DNA of 37,874 nt, taken from sequence record SRR22947727_1660; one strand, written 5' to 3'. The translations under genes were made by a program, and so were the position numbers. The notes below the pieces were generated by a model that was not told where the DNA came from, did not search any database, and saw nothing but the letters and a program-made list of their open reading frames with translations. The stretch's first letter is position 1, and each line of letters starts with the position of its first letter. Below are positions 2,017 through 36,505 of the stretch, one piece after another.

Positions 2017-3000
2017 ATGAAAATTCTTTTAACAGGAGGTGCTGGATATATAGGAAGTCATGTTTTGCTCTCTATTTTAGATAATAAACATGAGGTAATT
2101 GTCATTGATGACCTTTCTACGGGAAATAAAAACCTTATTCCTGAAAATATCAAATTAATTAATGTAAATATTAATGATTCAGAGAAAATCTCTAATTTAT
2201 TATTAGAGGAAAATTTTGATCTCCTTCTTCATTTTGCTGGATTTATCAAAGTAGAAGAATCAGTTCAAAACCCTGATAAATATTTTAAAAATAACACTGA
2301 TAACGCCATTAAACTTTTTGAAACGTGCTACAAACATAATTTAAAAAATATTATATTTTCTTCAACAGCAGCAGCTTATGGAAATCCTAACAACAATGAA
2401 TCAATAACCGAAGATGAAATTCTTAACCCCCTCAACCCCTATGGAGAATCAAAAGTTAAAACAGAAGAATATTTATTAAACAATAAAGATAAATATAATT
2501 CAATTATATTAAGGTACTTTAATGTTGCTGGTGCTGATCCTGAATTACGATCAGGTCTTATTTCAGATACGCCGACACACTTAATTAAAATTCTTAGTGA
2601 AGTTGCTGTTGGAAAAAGAGAAAAAATCTCAATATTTGGCAATGATTATAACACTAAAGATGGAACAGCAATTAGGGATTATATTCATGTGAGTGATTTA
2701 GCTAGTATTCATTTAGAGGCAGCAAAATATTTATTAGAAAAAAAAATTAGTAATATTTTTAATTGTGGATACGGAAAAGGATATTCAGTTTTAGAAGTAA
2801 TTAATACCGCTAATGAAATATATAATAATAAAATAATGTTTGAATATGATAAAAGGAGGGCTGGAGATTCTGAAAAATTAATTTCTAATGTTGATAAACT
2901 ACATGAGCATATAGATTGGAAACCAAAATTTGATGATTTAAAACTGATTATTAAAACAGCTGTTGATTGGGAAAAAAAAATAAATGAAAAAAATTTATAA
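2017..3000 (+). CDS. galE: UDP-glucose 4-epimerase
   Basis: TGGAGYIGSH, HFAG..KVEESV, FSSTAA, YGESK (YxxxK), LRYFNVAGA, DGTAIRDYIHV. Confidence 0.95.
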   Translation: MKILLTGGAGYIGSHVLLSILDNKHEVIVIDDLSTGNKNLIPENIKLINVNINDSEKISNLLLEENFDLLLHFAGFIKVEESVQNPDKYFKNNTDNAIKLFETCYKHNLKNIIFSSTAAAYGNPNNNESITEDEILNPLNPYGESKVKTEEYLLNNKDKYNSIILRYFNVAGADPELRSGLISDTPTHLIKILSEVAVGKREKISIFGNDYNTKDGTAIRDYIHVSDLASIHLEAAKYLLEKKISNIFNCGYGKGYSVLEVINTANEIYNNKIMFEYDKRRAGDSEKLISNVDKLHEHIDWKPKFDDLKLIIKTAVDWEKKINEKNL

Positions 3001-4033
3001 AAGAGAGTTTGAAAGAAATGATAAAAGACATTTGCTTCTCTTTGGATATGAAGAACATAATGAAAAAGCTGCTAAAGAACTTGAAATAACACCATCACCT
3101 AGTCCACACATGCGATGGAATCCTTCTCGACAAGAATGGGTAACTTATTCTGCTACGCGACAAGTAAGAACTGCTTTTCCCCCAAAAGAATATTGTCCTC
3201 TATGTCCTGGAGCGGAATTAAATTTTCCAACTGAAATTCCTTTTAAAAATTTTGAGGTTGCCATCTTTCCAAATAGATGGGCGAGTTTTAATACAAATGA
3301 AGATCAGACCTTAATTGATGGATTAAGTGTTAAACCCTCGAACGGAGACTGTGAAGTAGTAGTATATTCTTCTAATCATTTAGATACTATAGCTCAAATG
3401 CCCATAGAAAGAATTGAGCTTCTTTTTAATGCATGGTCAGATCGCTATGAACAATTACTTAAAAGAGATGATATTTTATATGTTATGCCATTTGAAAATA
3501 GAGGGGAAGAGTGTGGCGTTACACTTCATCATCCTCATGGTCAAATCTATGCCTTTCCTTTTATCCCACCAGTTATTCAAAAAGAAGTTGATGCTTTTAA
3601 TAAAGAAAATTTTATTTTGAAATTAATGAATGATCTAGAAACAAAATATTTTGTTTATCAGGATGATAACGTTATTGCGGCCGTTCCTCCTTTTGCAAGA
3701 TACGCCTATGAAATATGGATTATTCCAAAAAGACAACTTGCAGGCCCTTGGCAATTTACAGATGAAGAATATAATTCTTTTGCTATGGCTCTTCAAAAAG
3801 TAGTTAAGGGATATGATGATTTTCTAGGAAGAAGGTGTCCTTATATTATGGGCTTACATGCAGCACCTAAACTTGATGATAAAAATTTTCATTTTCATAT
3901 AGAATTTTATCCACCCTTAAGACACGGTGATAAACCAAAAGTTTTAGCAGGTTCTGAGTCTATGGCAGGAGTATTTATAATGGATGTTTTACCCGAAGAA
4001 ACTGCTATAGAACTTAGAAAGTATATGTCATGA
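2984..4033 (+). CDS. galT: Galactose-1-phosphate uridylyltransferase (GalT/HIT family)
   Basis: RWNP..EWV, CPLCPG, FENRG..GVTLHHPHGQ active site, HFHIEFYPP; overlaps galE. Confidence 0.9.
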   Translation: MKKIYKREFERNDKRHLLLFGYEEHNEKAAKELEITPSPSPHMRWNPSRQEWVTYSATRQVRTAFPPKEYCPLCPGAELNFPTEIPFKNFEVAIFPNRWASFNTNEDQTLIDGLSVKPSNGDCEVVVYSSNHLDTIAQMPIERIELLFNAWSDRYEQLLKRDDILYVMPFENRGEECGVTLHHPHGQIYAFPFIPPVIQKEVDAFNKENFILKLMNDLETKYFVYQDDNVIAAVPPFARYAYEIWIIPKRQLAGPWQFTDEEYNSFAMALQKVVKGYDDFLGRRCPYIMGLHAAPKLDDKNFHFHIEFYPPLRHGDKPKVLAGSESMAGVFIMDVLPEETAIELRKYMS

Positions 4034-17063: not shown

Positions 17064-19367
17064 TTAATTAAATAGAGGTTTTCCTGTATCAAGCGTATGT
17101 CTTATTCTCTCTTGAGTTGGTTTTTGACTAATTAAATCAATAAAAATTTCTCTTTCAAGATCATATAGTTTTTGCTCTGTTAATACGGTTGAGGCCTTTG
17201 TATCACCGCCACTCAGCATATAACCTAGTTTTTTACCAACTTCGATACCATGTTCTCCAATTACTTTTTTATCTTTTAACTCATATAAAATATTCATCAT
17301 ATCTGACATAACTGTTGAGCCTGGCAAAGAAAAAGTGGCGCTATCAAGTGGTTGATAGTTTTCTCTATTTGAAAAAATAAGTTTATCAGCCTCTTCAATT
17401 AAGCGGTCTTTACTCATAACCATAACATCTTTATCTCCTAAAAACTGTTGGGCCTTAGCTTTAATAGGCGAGTCAGCAGTAGTTGCATATCCTATTAAAT
17501 TAAAAACTTTTAAAGATAATAGTTTAGGATCATTTTTAATATCAGAATGATTTGCCCATCGTCTTAACATTTCTTTGCACCCACCTCCTGCAGGTATGAG
17601 ACCTACAAGTGATTCTACTAAACCAAGAACAGAGTTTGAATGTGCTGCAATAAAACTAGTTTGTGAAATAACTTCATACCCTCCTCCTATAGCTAATCCT
17701 GATGGACAAGATACAACAGGAAATTTTGCATGTTGGAGTTGATAAAGTGATTGCTGAAAATTATTCAGAAAAACATCAATATCTTTAAATTCTTTATTCA
17801 CTGCTCTATCATAAAAATAGTTTAAATTGACACCTGCAGAGAATTGCATGGCATCATTAGCTATAACTATTCCATCATACTTATCATTACACAAATCATA
17901 TGCTTTCATTAAACAGTCATTAGTTAGTCCATCGAGAGCATTTGCCTTGGTATGAAACTCAACACATATAAATTTTGATTTACCAGACATTTCCCAAATA
18001 GAAGCAGAGGCATTAGTATAAATAGGTTTTGAGGACTTTTTGCTATCTGATAAAGAAATTATGCCATCAGGTCTTTTCATTGGCATATAAGAGTGTTGAG
18101 GATGAAAATATTCTAATGCATTATCAGCAGTCTTAAATAATGAATTTTTTTGATCGATGAGTTGTTTGATCAAAGAAGGAATTTCTTCATCTTTATTAAG
18201 TTTTGAAACAAAATTTTCAATTCCAATTTCATCAAGTATTTCAAATGGTCCTTTTGACCAGTTAAATCCACATTTCATTGCATCATCAATATCATTGAAG
18301 TTGTTAGTGACATCTGGAACTAAACTTGAGGCATATAAAATTGTTTTTTTCATAATTGACCAAGCGTATTTTCCATACACATCATCTCTTTCTATTACAT
18401 TCACGACATCCATTACATCAGGTAACCCCAGATCAACTTTTTTAGATTCGTGATATGTATTGTTTTTATAATTGAGTGACTCTAAAATTTTTACATCAGA
18501 AGATTTATTCATTCGGAAAAAACCACCTTTTCCTTTTCTTCCTGTATAACCATCTTCAATAAGTTGATTAATAATTGGCAGTTCTTTACCCACAATATGG
18601 AAAGGGTCACTGACTGGTAGTTCTGTAATAAAACTTTTTAATACATCAGCCATCAAGTCAATACCAATTAAGTCATACAAACCAAATATTCCTGTTTTAG
18701 GAATACCAAGAGGTCTCCCAAAAACAGCATCAGCTTCTTCAACAGTAAGTCCAAGATTAAATGCTTCAGTCATTGCCACTTGCATAGCATACACACCAAC
18801 ACGATTGCCTAAAAATCCTGGTGAGTCATTGCAAACAACAACAGTCTTACCTAAAATCTTATCACCAAAATTAACGAGGTCATTTATTTTTTCTTTATCA
18901 TTTTGTGGCCCAATCACTAATTCGAGTAATCGCATATAACGAACTGGATTGAAAAAATGTGTAATACAAAAAACTTCCTTCATTTCTTTTGACATATCTT
19001 CAGTTAATACTTTCAGAGGGATAGAAGATGTATTGGATGAGACCAAAGCACCAGATTTTCGAAGTGTATCAATTTGTGAATAAAGTGTTTTTTTAATATC
19101 AATTCTTTCGACTACAGCTTCCACTACCCAATCTGCATCTTTTAATGATTCCATATCATTTTCTATACTTCCAGGAATGATATGATTGAGATTATTTTCC
19201 TCCATTAATAGAGGTGGTCTTGATTTTTTTATTCGCTCACATGCTTTAGTGGCAATCTCAATGGTTAGATCAAGTAGGTGAACCTGCAAACCTGCATTTG
19301 CTACCTGAGCCGCAATTCCACTACCCATAGTTCCTGATCCTATAACGACAACTTTTGATATTTTCAT
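17064..19367 (-). CDS. 3-hydroxyacyl-CoA dehydrogenase / enoyl-CoA hydratase bifunctional protein (FadN-like)
   Basis: GSGTMGSGIA, EAVVE, SSNTS, HFFNPVRY, followed by a crotonase domain (FSAGVNL, GGG.E, VGLIPAGGG); C-terminal TGKPL.N. Confidence 0.9.
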   Translation of the reverse strand: MKISKVVVIGSGTMGSGIAAQVANAGLQVHLLDLTIEIATKACERIKKSRPPLLMEENNLNHIIPGSIENDMESLKDADWVVEAVVERIDIKKTLYSQIDTLRKSGALVSSNTSSIPLKVLTEDMSKEMKEVFCITHFFNPVRYMRLLELVIGPQNDKEKINDLVNFGDKILGKTVVVCNDSPGFLGNRVGVYAMQVAMTEAFNLGLTVEEADAVFGRPLGIPKTGIFGLYDLIGIDLMADVLKSFITELPVSDPFHIVGKELPIINQLIEDGYTGRKGKGGFFRMNKSSDVKILESLNYKNNTYHESKKVDLGLPDVMDVVNVIERDDVYGKYAWSIMKKTILYASSLVPDVTNNFNDIDDAMKCGFNWSKGPFEILDEIGIENFVSKLNKDEEIPSLIKQLIDQKNSLFKTADNALEYFHPQHSYMPMKRPDGIISLSDSKKSSKPIYTNASASIWEMSGKSKFICVEFHTKANALDGLTNDCLMKAYDLCNDKYDGIVIANDAMQFSAGVNLNYFYDRAVNKEFKDIDVFLNNFQQSLYQLQHAKFPVVSCPSGLAIGGGYEVISQTSFIAAHSNSVLGLVESLVGLIPAGGGCKEMLRRWANHSDIKNDPKLLSLKVFNLIGYATTADSPIKAKAQQFLGDKDVMVMSKDRLIEEADKLIFSNRENYQPLDSATFSLPGSTVMSDMMNILYELKDKKVIGEHGIEVGKKLGYMLSGGDTKASTVLTEQKLYDLEREIFIDLISQKPTQERIRHTLDTGKPLFN

Positions 19368-31468: not shown

Positions 31469-32721
31469 TGAATATTTTTAAAACAATTAACGAATTAGGT
31501 AAAAAAGCCAAAGATGCATCTATTAAAATTAGAGTATTACAAAAAGAAAAAAAAATGGCGGCTTATCAATGCTTAGAAAAAAATATTGAAAATAATGCAG
31601 AACAAATATTAAGTGCAAATAAATTGGATATTGAAAATGCTTTTACAAATGATTTATCAAAACCCCTAATCAATCGATTAAAAGTTACAGAAGAATCCAT
31701 TGCTGGTATAATTAAAAGTATATCTGAAATTAAAGATCAACCAGATCCAATTGGAACAGTTTTAGAAAACTGGGAACAACCAAACGGACTTAAATTTTCA
31801 AAAATATCAGTACCTCTGGGCGTATTAGGAGTGATTTATGAATCAAGGCCAAATGTAACTGTAGATGCATCTTGTCTTGCATTAAAATCTAATAACGCAT
31901 TAATTCTAAGAGGTGGAAGTGATAGCTATCACACCTCAAAGCAATTAGTGAATATCATAACGAAATCTTTTGTGGAAGCTAATCTGCCAGAAAATATAAT
32001 TCAAATGATACCAACAACTGACAGAGAGGCTGTTGATCACCTATTAGAAATGAAAGACTATGTTAATGTTATAATTCCTAGAGGAGGAAAAAGTTTAATT
32101 AAAAAAATTAATGAAAAAAGTAAAATACCTGTAATTAAACACTTAGAAGGCTTGTGTCATGTGTATGTTGATAAAGAGGCTGACATTGAAATTGCTAAGA
32201 ATATTATTTTTAATAGTAAATTAAGAAGACCAGAAATTTGTGGAGCAGCTGAAACATTATTAATAGACTCATCACTAAAAGAAAAAGCACTCGAATTAAT
32301 AGAACCTATATACAAAGCAGGATGTGTAATAAGGGGTGATGATTTTATTACAAATTTAGATAAAAATTTTGAGAGAGCAAATGATGAAGACTGGTCTACT
32401 GAATATTTAGATAAAATAATTTCTGTAAAAATTGTTGATGGTGTTATGGGAGCCACTGATCATATAAATCGTTATTCTTCTAATCACACAGAATCTATAA
32501 TTACTGAAAACGAAGAATCATTTATGAATTTTTATAATAATATTGATAGTGCCATAATTCTTAAAAATGCTTCAACTCAATTTGCTGATGGTGGGGAATT
32601 TGGTTTTGGTGCAGAAATTGGAATATCTACCGATAAACTTCATGTTCGTGGACCAGTAGGGGCAAAACACCTAACAACTTTCAAGTATATTGTTCATGGA
32701 AATGGACAAGCTAGACCATAA
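31468..32721 (+). CDS. proA: Glutamate-5-semialdehyde dehydrogenase
   Basis: VPLGV.GVIYESRPNVT, IPRGG, G.CH.YVD, NASTQFADGGEFG.GAEIGIST.KLH.RGPVG. Confidence 0.97.
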
Positions 32722-33303
32722 ATGAAAAATATTGGTCTACTTGGAGGATCATTTGATCCACCACATAAAGGTCATCTATATATATCATTAGAAGCAAAGA
32801 AAATTTTGAAACTTGATGAAATATGGTGGCTTGTTACCCCACAAAATCCTCTAAAAATAAATAAGCCGGCTTCTTATTCTGAGAGATTACGAAACTGTAA
32901 ATCAATTGTTAGAAACCAACCAATAAAAGTTAAAGAAATAGAAAAAAAAATAAACTCTAAATATTCATATCAAACAATTAAATACATAAACAAGCATTAC
33001 AAAAATCTTAATTTTTTTTGGTTAATGGGAGCTGATAATTTAATCAATTTTCACAAGTGGCAAAATGCCCATAGAATATTTAATGAAATCCCTATTGTAG
33101 TATTTAGGAGATATGGATATAATGAAAAAGCATTGAAGAGTAACATAGCAAATTTTTATAAGAATTTTAAAATTAACAGTAAAAATATACACGCAAATCA
33201 TTTAAATCACACACCGGCTTGGACCATTATCCAAAATAAAGAAATTAAAATATCTTCTACTGAAATTAGAAAACAACGAGAACAATTGAGGTCCAAAGAT
33301 TAG
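32722..33303 (+). CDS. nadD: Nicotinate-nucleotide adenylyltransferase
   Basis: GGSFDPPHKGH, WWLVTPQNPLK, WLMGADNL..FHKW, ISSTEIR. Confidence 0.95.
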   Translation: MKNIGLLGGSFDPPHKGHLYISLEAKKILKLDEIWWLVTPQNPLKINKPASYSERLRNCKSIVRNQPIKVKEIEKKINSKYSYQTIKYINKHYKNLNFFWLMGADNLINFHKWQNAHRIFNEIPIVVFRRYGYNEKALKSNIANFYKNFKINSKNIHANHLNHTPAWTIIQNKEIKISSTEIRKQREQLRSKD

Positions 33304-33655
33304 CTCTTCATCATCATTAACCGATAAAATATTCAGCATCTTAGATGATGCAAAAGCTGAGGATATAAAAATTATTGATTTAAGAAATAAATCTTCCGTT
33401 GCAGATTATTTTGTAATTTCAACATGCCGATCAAGTCGACACGCTGATGCAACAGCTGACGACCTTGCAAGAAAATTAAAAAAATTAGGATTTAAAAACC
33501 CTTCCCCTGAAGGAAGACCTAAATGTGATTGGGTTATAGTTGATGCGGGGTCAGTTATTGTTCATTTATTTAAAAAAGAAATAAGAGAACTCTATAATTT
33601 AGAACAGTTGTGGGAAGTAAACTTTGAATCTGAGAAAAGTAAACTAGCTAATTAG
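33299..33655 (+). CDS. rsfS: Ribosome silencing factor RsfS (iojap), predicted non-canonical ATT start
   Basis: Frame reads ...LDDAKAEDIKIIDL..KSSVADYFVISTCRSSRH...EG...DWVIVDAGSVIVHLF..EIRELYNLEQLW...*; canonical position after nadD; in-frame TGA at 33287; SD GAGGT 6 nt before ATT 33299. Confidence 0.92.
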   Translation: MSSSSSLTDKIFSILDDAKAEDIKIIDLRNKSSVADYFVISTCRSSRHADATADDLARKLKKLGFKNPSPEGRPKCDWVIVDAGSVIVHLFKKEIRELYNLEQLWEVNFESEKSKLAN

Positions 33656-33676
33656 AAGGTAACATAAGGTGATAAA

Positions 33677-34966
33677 ATGAAGTTTTTTGTTAAATATTTT
33701 GCGGCTTTTCTAATATTTTTATGTTCTTTCTCAGCACAAAGTGCCTCCAAAAATAAAGAAACATATGAATATCTTGATTTATTTGGACAAATCTTTGACA
33801 GAGTTAGATCAGAATACGTTGAAGAAGTAACCGATCAAGAACTAATTGAAAAAGCAATCGATGGAATGTTAACGGGTCTTGATCCGCATTCGGGCTATAT
33901 GAATGAAGAAGTATGGCAGGAAATGCAAATGGACACCCAAGGAAAATTTGGTGGGCTAGGAATAGAAATCACTATGGAAGAAGGTTTTGTAAAAGTTATC
34001 TCTCCTATAGAAGATAGTCCCGCATATGAAGCTGGAATATTGGCTGGGGACTTTATTATTCAAATTGATGACACCCCTGTTTTTGGTTTAACACTTAATG
34101 AAGCTGTAGAGTTAATGAGAGGAGAAAAAGGACAATCAATTACCATAACGGTATCTCGGGATGGAACAGAGCCATTTGAAGTAAAAATAGTAAGAGATAT
34201 AATTAAAATTCAATCAGTAAAATCAGAAGTGTATGATGATATTGGGTATTTAAGAATAACTTCTTTTACTGAACAAACAGAAGATGGTTTATTAAAATCT
34301 ATTAAAACAATCCAAAAAGAAAATGAAAATATAAAAGGTTATGTTCTTGATGTTCGATCAAACCCTGGCGGGCTATTAAGTCAAGCAGTAAAGGTATCGG
34401 ATATATTTTTAACAAGAGGAGAAATAGTTTCCACTAGAGGAAGAGAAAAAAAAGATATTAGAAGATACAGAGCTAAAAATAAAGATCATACAAACGGTAA
34501 ACCTATTGTTGTTCTTATAAATGGTGGATCAGCATCTGCCTCAGAAATTGTAGCTGGAGCTCTTCAAGATCATCGACGTGCAATTATAGTAGGTACTCAA
34601 TCTTTTGGTAAAGGTTCTGTTCAAACCATTATGCCTTTTCAACGATCTAACGCTGAAAATGTATCTGGCATCAGATTAACTACCGCGAGATATTATACTC
34701 CTTCCGGTGAGTCTATTCAGGGAAAAGGAATAAGTCCTGACATCATTGTTGAGCAAGGAGAATTTGAATCTTATGATTTTAAAAGATATTCAGAGTCGGA
34801 TCTAAAAGACTCATTAGATAAAGATAATGAAAATGCTAAAAATGATAACGCTGATGATACAGAATTAAGTGAAAAAGAAAAACGCTTAGCTAAAGATTAT
34901 CAACTTCAAAGAGCACTTGATTTATTAAAAGGACTAAGTATTTTTGAAGAGTCTTTTGAAGAATAA
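33677..34966 (+). CDS. ctpA: Carboxyl-terminal processing protease (S41)
   Basis: Signal peptide, LDPHS.Y, FGGLGIE (PDZ), D.R.NPGGLL, SASASEIVAGALQD, FGKGSVQ, TTARYYTP. Confidence 0.95.
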   Translation: MKFFVKYFAAFLIFLCSFSAQSASKNKETYEYLDLFGQIFDRVRSEYVEEVTDQELIEKAIDGMLTGLDPHSGYMNEEVWQEMQMDTQGKFGGLGIEITMEEGFVKVISPIEDSPAYEAGILAGDFIIQIDDTPVFGLTLNEAVELMRGEKGQSITITVSRDGTEPFEVKIVRDIIKIQSVKSEVYDDIGYLRITSFTEQTEDGLLKSIKTIQKENENIKGYVLDVRSNPGGLLSQAVKVSDIFLTRGEIVSTRGREKKDIRRYRAKNKDHTNGKPIVVLINGGSASASEIVAGALQDHRRAIIVGTQSFGKGSVQTIMPFQRSNAENVSGIRLTTARYYTPSGESIQGKGISPDIIVEQGEFESYDFKRYSESDLKDSLDKDNENAKNDNADDTELSEKEKRLAKDYQLQRALDLLKGLSIFEESFEE

Positions 34967-35482: not shown

Positions 35483-36505
35483 ATGTTTAATCTTGAGATA
35501 AATGATTTAGATAAAAAAATATGGGATGAAGAACTGAACGATTTTGTTCCAAAAAAAGTTTACGATGTACATACTCACATTTATCAATGGCAATCAAATC
35601 TAGATAAAAATAAAAATACAGGTCCTTATAAATATCAAGGAGAAAATTTTCAAAATGTCTCGTTTGATTTATTAGACAAAGTTGATAACAAATTAATACC
35701 AGGAAGAATTGTGGAGAGATTATCTTTCCCCTTCCCCTATAATTATCCATGTGATTTTGATAATTCTAATCACTATGTAAGTTCACAAACAAATAATCAT
35801 CAAGAGTCTGATAATTTAATCTTAATCAATCCTATGATGAGTAAAGAAGAAATTACAAAAAATTTACAATCATCACAAGCTGTAGGATTTAAACCATATA
35901 GAGCTTATTCAAAAACTGGTGATATTACAAATTGTGGAATTACTGACTTTATGTCGGAAGAACATATAAAAATTGCGGATGAAAAAAGTTTGATCATAAT
36001 GATGCATTTATCAAAAAAATACGGTGTTGCTGATGATGAGAATATAAATGATCTAATTTTTCTTAGCGAAAAATACCCTAATGTAAAATGGATATTAGCT
36101 CACTGCGCAAGAAGTTACTCAGCCTGGGGAATAGAAAAAGCTGCTAAAAAATTAAGAGACTTAAAAAACATTTGGTATGATTGCTCAACCGTGTGTGAAT
36201 CTGATGCTCTTGATGCTCTATATACTGGAGTTGGAGTAGATAGAGTTATGTATGGCTCAGATGATATGATTGGACCAATGCGAGGAAAGTACATCTCATT
36301 TGGTATGGCATGGTCAAACATTAATGAGAATAACCATTCATTAAAACTTGATCACTGCGATTCAAGAATGACTTTTATTCGATATGAACAATTAAGGGCA
36401 ATGAAAAGAGGAGCTAGACAAATCGGTCTATCAGTAAAACAAAAAAATGCTTTGTTTTACAATACTGCAAAAAATTTAGTGAATAGTGTTAAATCTTTAG
36501 ATTAG
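35483..36505 (+). CDS. Amidohydrolase_2 family metal-dependent hydrolase, substrate unknown
   Basis: DVHTH, GFKPY, MMH, ILAHC, WYDCS, MYGSD metal-ligand pattern. Confidence 0.82.
   Translation: MFNLEINDLDKKIWDEELNDFVPKKVYDVHTHIYQWQSNLDKNKNTGPYKYQGENFQNVSFDLLDKVDNKLIPGRIVERLSFPFPYNYPCDFDNSNHYVSSQTNNHQESDNLILINPMMSKEEITKNLQSSQAVGFKPYRAYSKTGDITNCGITDFMSEEHIKIADEKSLIIMMHLSKKYGVADDENINDLIFLSEKYPNVKWILAHCARSYSAWGIEKAAKKLRDLKNIWYDCSTVCESDALDALYTGVGVDRVMYGSDDMIGPMRGKYISFGMAWSNINENNHSLKLDHCDSRMTFIRYEQLRAMKRGARQIGLSVKQKNALFYNTAKNLVNSVKSLD

Follow-up and report, generated by a model that had tools for sequence, protein, structure and literature searches.

A conserved AUU start codon is very rare in bacteria, and the genes in which one has been described, infC, pcnB, IS911, ebpA and cvfC1, are each reported to be a translational control point. 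Such starts are weak: in Escherichia coli reporters AUU and UUG were found to lie 6-8 times below AUG (PMC3592434), and the conserved AUU and AUA starts of Staphylococcus aureus, which are accompanied by strong extended Shine-Dalgarno (SD) sequences, are reported to give about 10% of the output of AUG (PMC13009471). The E. coli reporter work also indicates that overlapping stop-start junctions are served about equally by re-initiation and by de novo initiation (PMC3592434). Here we describe rsfS, the gene of a ribosome silencing factor whose homologues bind uL14 of the 50S subunit and block subunit association (PMC7125091, PMC3400551), on the plus strand of SRR22947727_1660, a stretch of 37,874 nucleotides (hereafter the window). 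The closest loci belong to single-cell genomes and metagenome-assembled genomes (MAGs) of the Pelagibacterales and Pelagibacteraceae, and the window is therefore taken to come from a SAR11-type genome. We consider it quite probable, on comparative grounds, that this rsfS is functional and that the AUU at 33299-33301, which shares one base with the stop codon of the upstream gene nadD, is its start codon, served by an SD sequence within the end of nadD; initiation would in part be re-initiation, and the output is expected to be low and sensitive to initiation factor 3 (IF3). AUU starts and the discrimination of IF3 against them are already known; rsfS of SAR11 is a new, family-wide case.

The rsfS frame and its ATT codon

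The frame in question is free of stops from 33290 to 33655 and translates to 121 residues. Its product matches PF02410 (E 8.2e-32; 109.8 bits against a cut-off of 21.6; profile positions 2-98 of 98) and TIGR00090 (E 5.4e-33; 113.1 bits against 56.9; profile positions 2-99 of 99), and solved RsfS chains match it down to E 6e-24; judged by these matches, it is a full-length RsfS/YbeB/Iojap ribosome silencing factor. The initial annotation had described an intact RsfS frame overlooked by the track of open reading frames (ORFs), and this description holds: the frame is absent from the ORF list, which is restricted to ATG, GTG and TTG starts, whereas the starts of translation table 11 yield an ORF at 33299-33655 that begins at the ATT and comprises 118 codons (118 aa) followed by TAG. 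The further features named there can all be read directly in the sequence. The frame is closed upstream by a TGA (33287-33289), three codons before the ATT; its sole ATG, GTG or TTG is a TTG near the C-terminus (33608-33610; codon 107 of 121, codon index 106), which lies 15 codons before the stop and cannot yield a functional RsfS; and a GAGGT (33288-33292) stands 6 nt ahead of the ATT (33299-33301), whose last base is also the first of the nadD stop TAG (33301-33303). In the frame of nadD the junction reads CAA TTG AGG TCC AAA GAT TAG, in that of rsfS TGA GGT CCA AAG ATT AGC TCT.

Standard ORF callers overlook rsfS, and this could be taken to mean that the ATT start is an artefact or a sign of decay, be it an assembly error, a recent loss of the start codon or a pseudogene. 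We give this explanation virtually no weight. Four public runs, each from a different study (one DNA and three RNA libraries), provide contigs that were aligned over 32700-33750, and between 33232 and 33396 no difference from the window is listed in any of them. The contigs that cross the junction are record 4 of run X1 (32749-33396), record 9 of X14 (32700-33441; this run is without cover at 33456-33491), record 21 of X15 (32891-33750) and record 25 of X17 (33145-33546), and two contigs from other assemblies (L081 and L086) match the window exactly at the junction. Sequence support at 33299-33301, a check proposed in the initial annotation, is thus provided by the contigs of four independent runs, all of which agree with ATT, and assembly error as its source is excluded. 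The gene has a dN/dS of 0.04-0.11 (window against eight relatives of the ATT-only clade, at a dS of 0.6-1.4) and is therefore under strong purifying selection. Of 117 usable sequences, comprising 27 metagenome contigs and 90 family places (described below), 114 also carry the ATT, and artefact and decay are thereby already refuted.

Relatives were collected at several levels. A scan of species genomes gave 131 relatives and was narrowed to the best 80; a scan of metagenome contigs gave 61. In a search of the 116 genomes of the GTDB family to which a close relative belongs, matches in 88 yielded 90 rsfS places, all of which were retrieved; the other 28 genomes, being incomplete assemblies, provide no evidence of absence. 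An order-level search matched 144 of 187 genomes, with 20 of the 56 out-of-family matches retrieved. From the metagenome contigs, 30 loci with an identity of at least 67% were tallied, three of them cut at the 5' end, which leaves 27 usable; the 31 loci at 43% identity or below, from other phyla, were kept out of the ATT tally. At 87 of the 90 family places there is an in-frame ATT whose last T opens the stop of the upstream ORF (ATTAG or ATTAA), and all 27 usable metagenome contigs likewise carry an ATT on the stop, 26 of them without any canonical start. Among the 87 ATT-bearing family places, 42 have no ATG, GTG or TTG anywhere from the ATT to the codon for Ile14, 40 have a TTG at Leu10, six codons further on, and five, L162 in genome G037 among them, have another canonical codon. 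The family places without an ATT on the stop are L223 (63% identity, with an ATG), L229 (53%) and L232 (34%), the last being a second rsfS copy, with ATG, in genome G112.

To gauge the fixation of the ATT, parsimony changes per column were counted on a midpoint-rooted FastTree tree, which was built from flanking nadD and rsfS sequence with the junction excluded. Its 114 tips are the window together with metagenome contigs and family places; one further sequence with the ATT was dropped for having less than 150 nt upstream. All three bases of the ATT and the A that follows show no change. Directly before the ATT, the opening base of the last nadD codon undergoes 14 changes; the C-terminal residue of NadD, which may be Asp, Asn, Tyr or His, is therefore not conserved. 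The middle T of the ATT occupies the wobble position of this NAT codon, and a C there would leave the residue unaltered. By comparison, two rsfS GAT codons show 6 and 7 changes at their wobble T on this tree, two Ile codons show 12 and 14 at their wobble base, and the wobble positions of nadD across the 45 nt upstream show 1-24 changes, in most cases 8-21. The pairwise dS of the window to other members of its clade is 0.6-1.4; synonymous sites are thus near saturation while the ATT stays fixed. By this comparative measure the ATT is selected as a triplet and is not a recent mutation. Relatives or reads with ATG, GTG or TTG at the site had been named beforehand as the finding that would speak against an AUU start; there are none among the 114 ATT-on-stop sequences, nor in any run contig.

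Candidate start site and Shine-Dalgarno element

The GAGGT (33288-33292) lies inside the 3' end of nadD, is separated from the ATT by the spacer CCAAAG (33293-33298) and is complementary to ACCUC of the 16S rRNA 3' tail; the 3' end of the 16S rRNA was read in three relatives as GGATCACCTCCTTTCT, so that GAGGU pairs with ACCUC. A GAGG occurs 5-8 nt upstream of the ATT in 84 of the 87 family places, and AAGG or GGGG in the other three. In the clade of the window the GAGG arises from TTG AGG (Leu-Arg) and lies 7 nt before the ATT, counted from the last G, whereas in a large clade of about 70% identity it arises from AGA GGC (Arg-Gly) and lies 5 nt before it. The register of the element within nadD is thus shifted by 2 nt between the clades (TTG AGG TCC versus TTA AGA GGC), and since it is kept despite a moved register and changed residues, it is not a by-product of the NadD residues. 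The comparison of junctions suggested in the initial annotation accordingly finds both the SD and the non-AUG codon kept across relatives (GAGG 84/87; ATT 87/90). In one metagenome contig of 98% identity (L082), TCAGG replaces TGAGG, a difference that abolishes the in-frame stop upstream and weakens the SD but leaves the ATT in place.

SD sequences are rare in the window: 30 of the 36 first canonical starts have no match of at least 3 nt to the anti-SD complement at a distance of 3-12 nt. A match of at least 5 nt is found at 4 of these 36 starts and at 4.3% of all window positions; the element at rsfS is unremarkable as a single case and, judged across the relatives, noteworthy by its conservation. 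The few window genes with a strong SD include the peptidase gene that follows rsfS (AGGTGAT, 3 nt before the ATG at 33677) and rppH (AAAGGA). An RNA structure that would mask the SD is unsupported, as folding of 33240-33360 gives z = -0.01 against shuffles, and an Rfam scan of 32000-34500 at E values up to 1 returned only three sub-threshold chance matches of the snoRNA type.

The codons that follow the ATT bear on a different explanation, in which translation starts further downstream, at Ile14 (ATA at 33329-33331) or at Leu10 where this is TTG, and the ATT is conserved for another reason. Existing protein models lend it some credit: P0028, the protein marked as the window's own in the collection, and the NCBI models P0061, P0125 and P0126 all comprise 108 aa from Ile14, and 112-aa ENA models (P0023) begin at Leu10, which is TTG in 41 of the 114 relatives. 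The sequences themselves point elsewhere. An in-frame stop lies exactly three codons upstream of the ATT in 96 of the 114, and in the 9-10 codons from the ATT to Ile14 the rsfS frame is interrupted by a stop in a single sequence (L162, in which an ATG follows directly), compared with 103 and 92 of the 114 for the other two frames. In 113 of 114 sequences codons 5-13 are thus free of in-frame stops, and the six length changes between the ATT and Ile14 all keep the frame, partly by ascertainment. Leu10 is retained across TTA, TTG, CTA, CTG and CTC, and Thr11 across ACA, ACG, ACT and ACC. Alignments place the same codons opposite the N-terminus of E. coli RsfS and opposite the TIGR00090 profile from position 2 onward; residues 4-104 of the E. 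coli protein align to query residues 8-108, which places E. coli Met1 one residue after the ATT codon, and the TIGR00090 alignment begins at query residue 11. On this evidence the codons between the ATT and Ile14 are coding. The ATA at 33329, for its part, has no SD; Ile14 is encoded by ATT, ATA or ATC like any ordinary Ile, with 12 changes at the wobble base, and four sequences have a Val, Ala or Thr codon in its place; the Leu10 TTG is absent from the window and from 26 of the 27 metagenome relatives. We therefore reject the ATA as the main start and regard a downstream start as highly unlikely. The upstream stop and the coding N-terminal stretch together confine the start to a few codons, among which the ATT is the sole invariant near-cognate codon.

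An ATT start does not appear to be a general habit of this genome. Of 47 stop-to-stop frames of at least 90 codons in the window, three, including rsfS, have no canonical start within their first 20 codons. The other two (2709-3071 on the minus strand and 18568-18939 on the plus strand) both lie inside longer frames and are probably shadows of these; apart from them, rsfS is the only frame of this length in the window without an early canonical start. ATG makes up 31 of the 36 tabulated starts, in line with the near-exclusive use of ATG noted for bacteria of very low GC content (PMC5499595).

Initiation at the AUU, as served by GAGGT and placed on the nadD stop, is the structural reading of the initial annotation and is strongly supported by this comparative evidence, yet a number of points weigh against it. 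The evidence for AUU initiation is comparative. The 114 sequences were pre-selected for an ATT on the stop (114 of 117 usable ones passed), and the three family places that lack it are the more divergent ones, at 34-63% identity. The third base of the ATT is also fixed by the nadD stop, such that independent evidence comes from the A and the middle T only. A single clade of some 55 species, whose junctions are near-identical, dominates the counts; the 114 sequences comprise 79 distinct junction haplotypes. The FastTree tree was midpoint-rooted without a support analysis. Where Leu10 is TTG, as in 41 of 114 relatives, translation could also begin at that codon, six codons downstream; the tree shows about 12 switches between TTG and TTA, the pattern of a synonymous site. 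Finally, the ATT is not indispensable, since one lineage (L162, G037:C29) has switched to an ATG nine bases downstream: its junction reads ATT AAT ACT TAA ATG AAT TTA, with the SD and the ATT on the stop kept, a stop after three codons and the ATG abutting it. Proteins of the L162 type (P0109, MNLTNQIF...) are found on 85 contigs, and a common marine lineage has therefore reverted to ATG.

Probable coupling to nadD and possible sensitivity to IF3

The proposed mechanism starts from the geometry of the junction. The GAGGU within the last nadD codons would position a 30S subunit on the AUU, where initiator fMet-tRNA would start translation. The last U of the AUU also opens the nadD stop, and ribosomes that have completed nadD therefore probably account for some of the initiations by re-initiating; the remainder would occur de novo. 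RsfS output would then be low, tied to the translation of nadD and, as extrapolated from work in E. coli and S. aureus, sensitive to IF3, a factor that disfavours AUU. The two genes lie on the same strand with an overlap of one base, kept as ATTAG or ATTAA, and a scan of the junction found no terminator-like site on the plus strand between them; promoter-like sites are no more frequent than in shuffled sequence (8 versus 5.7 +/- 2.4). Contigs of three RNA libraries (X14, X15 and X17) bridge the junction, although DNA carry-over is possible and a bridging contig is no proof of a single transcript; the public runs consist of contigs, from which neither RNA level nor RNA ends can be read.

The same geometry could also serve a programmed +1 frameshift of the prfB type at the nadD stop, which would produce a NadD-RsfS fusion with no separate initiation. 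It has in its favour that rsfS lies in the +1 frame of nadD, that the stop follows the last codon, that an SD-like element lies upstream, and that one locus (L147 in G010) has both genes fused in frame in an open frame of 310 aa. We nonetheless consider it extremely improbable. In prfB frameshifting the SD lies about 3 nt upstream of the P-site codon, unlike the 6 nt between the SD and the last codon of nadD; this codon varies (GAT, AAT, TAT, CAT), and none of the four is expected to re-pair well on AUU after a +1 shift. The prfB-type candidate was rejected on this geometry, that is, the variable P-site codon and the SD 6 nt away. A search for longer proteins, weak evidence in itself, gave one match among 464 candidates, which was not a NadD fusion, and the G010 fusion comes down to an A5-to-A4 homopolymer difference from the near-identical L084 and L085 on a contig of very low coverage. 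The L147 fusion (G010:C41, the same place as L001, with the junction at about 2001 in L001) may be a sequencing error or a real variant.

A canonical codon precedes the domain in 119 of 122 more distant rsfS loci, which were drawn from the species-genome and metagenome scans and the order-level search and represent Firmicutes, Bacteroidota and further groups besides other families of the order; two loci have none and one runs off its contig end. Throughout the order, rsfS and its upstream ORF are always closely joined: in sister families with nadD-rsfS the junction reads ATGA in L233 and TTGA, with an AGGA SD, in L235-L237. In a further sister family (L238-L252) a GTG lies 17-20 nt before the stop and an ATT four codons later (ATC in L249); the stop of the upstream ORF lies 3 nt after this ATT or ATC in 13 of the 15 loci and overlaps it in L243, and in L239 the upstream ORF was not found. 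GCG replaces the GTG in L238 and L241 and leaves the ATT as the only near-cognate codon, and these two loci may use it. From these junctions the coupling of nadD and rsfS looks ancestral, with the family of the window carrying it with AUU.

Why the start should be AUU is a separate matter. The initial annotation had offered two answers, namely that RsfS output is inversely tied to the level of IF3 or that it is simply held very low. In the stronger version of the former, AUU would have been selected so that RsfS synthesis answers inversely to IF3, with IF3 on the 30S and RsfS on the 50S subunit compensating each other. The idea extends E. coli work on infC and pcnB by analogy, and several points speak for it. 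Overproduction of IF3 is reported to inhibit non-canonical initiation and re-initiation, less so where an SD is present (PMC2268962), the AUU of infC is described as the target of IF3 autoregulation (PMC5499595), and RsfS prevents subunit association through its binding to uL14 (PMC7125091, PMC3400551). The AUU is conserved far beyond neutral expectation, and more strictly than mere weakness would need, given that TTG or GTG, which are used by sister families, would do for a low output. The gene for IF3 is itself at hand, with infC present in four of the five relatives searched (no match in G003 with the query used).

However, infC in these four relatives (G002, G010, G005 and G001; L253-L256) has a conserved TTG and neither ATT nor ATG at its N-terminus: the sequence reads TTG GCA GTA/ATA AAT..., with no evident SD and an ATA 2-3 codons upstream, and by its conservation the TTG is the likely infC start. 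An E. coli-type AUU autoregulation of IF3 is therefore not evident in this lineage. The physiology is also awkward, as non-AUG mRNAs are reported to be translated worse under nutrient limitation and with ppGpp in vitro (PMC5499595), which is the wrong direction for a silencing factor of starvation. Moreover, E. coli rsfS already starts from a weak UUG (PMC10917681), and this suggests, by analogy, a general rule of keeping RsfS low, a simpler rule that also fits the TTG and GTG starts of the sister families. We thus consider selection for an inverse response to IF3 possible in principle and on balance unlikely; that RsfS is simply held very low is at least as likely as an output tied to IF3. 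An elaboration that we rate as rather more doubtful still is a protein-free loop that would balance IF3 and RsfS by combining an AUU read only at low IF3 stringency, a rare SD dependent on a free anti-SD tail, and the coupling to nadD. If true, RsfS synthesis in SAR11, a family with few regulators and almost no SDs, would be wired directly to the state of the initiation machinery.

Locus setting, annotation and known parallels

The gene order on the plus strand between 29368 and 35429 is obgE, proB, proA, nadD, rsfS, a gene for an S41 C-terminal processing peptidase, and rppH, with a G+C content of 0.29-0.38 along the window. The stop TAA of proA (32719-32721) directly abuts the ATG of nadD (nicotinate-nucleotide adenylyltransferase; 32722-33303, 193 codons), the product of which scores 135.7 bits with TIGR00482 against a cut-off of 112.45 and matches PF01467. 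The downstream neighbour of rsfS is the C-terminal processing peptidase gene and not rlmH. Further along the same strand, a 340-aa ORF at 35483-36505 has no NCBIfam family at an E value of 1e-10 or better.

The start of rsfS is annotated in strikingly different ways. NCBI names the proteins of relatives ribosome silencing factor and gives them one of two starts, the ATT (P0043 and P0122, of 118 aa) or Ile14 (108 aa). Among ENA models there are proteins of 150-154 aa in which the upstream TGA is read as W (...NNWGPKISSSS...; P0002-P0022 and others), proteins of 112 aa from a TTG at Leu10, and fragments; the 150-154-aa models are genetic-code-4 miscalls on AT-rich SAR11 contigs. One further ENA protein (P0152, 273 aa, on a single contig) joins the IF2-type domains PF11987 and PF03144 to an RsfS domain 69% identical to the query and may be a chimeric call or a real fusion. 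The suspicion in the initial annotation that genomes of this lineage are mis-annotated as lacking rsfS is therefore borne out in part: rsfS is not generally reported as lacking, since NCBI names it, while its starts are inconsistent and callers based on ATG, GTG and TTG fail. Such callers miss or truncate rsfS, or read through the TGA with table 4, with resulting models of 118, 108, 112 or 150 aa, and the inconsistency can make rsfS appear absent or variable in pangenome and metaproteome analyses. A literature search, mostly without subscription journals and supplements, found no link between rsfS/ybeB, or SAR11/Pelagibacter, and an ATT or AUU start.

SAR11 bacteria are among the most abundant in the ocean, grow slowly and have few classical regulators. 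The AUU of rsfS offers a concrete and testable handle on how they set the level of a hibernation or assembly factor.

The closest parallels are infC and pcnB of E. coli, which likewise combine a non-canonical AUU with an SD, are conserved among relatives and are described as limited in output by the weak start (PMC3592434, PMC5499595, PMC2830850); as with these, rsfS is concerned with the translation machinery. The gene and the lineage are different, and the AUU initiation proposed for rsfS is drawn from comparison. The AUU of rsfS overlaps the upstream stop by one base, whereas the infC junction modelled in the E. coli work is UAA GGU AUU (PMC3592434), and infC of the SAR11 relatives, unlike that of E. 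coli, appears to be on TTG. In S. aureus, cvfC1 (AUU), ccpN (AUA) and infC (AUA) are reported to offset a conserved non-AUG start by a well-spaced SD (PMC13009471), much like rsfS; the starts there were mapped by ribosome profiling and SD use is general, in contrast to the comparative evidence and the rarity of SDs in the window. The rsfS start resembles the coupled AUGA and UAAUG junctions in that it overlaps the upstream stop, but in AUUAG or AUUAA the start comes before the stop and shares one base with it, a form that is impossible with AUG, GUG or UUG. E. coli rsfS (ybeB) belongs to the same family, lies in a nadD neighbourhood and is reported to use a minor start codon, UUG (PMC10917681), which is canonical for IF3 while AUU is not. 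Finally, rpsU (bS21) of the Flavobacteriales is described as a ribosome-related gene with a conserved SD in genomes whose genes mostly lack one (PMC9976891); the mechanism there is that bS21 sequesters the anti-SD, and for rsfS of SAR11 the parallel is one of analogy only.

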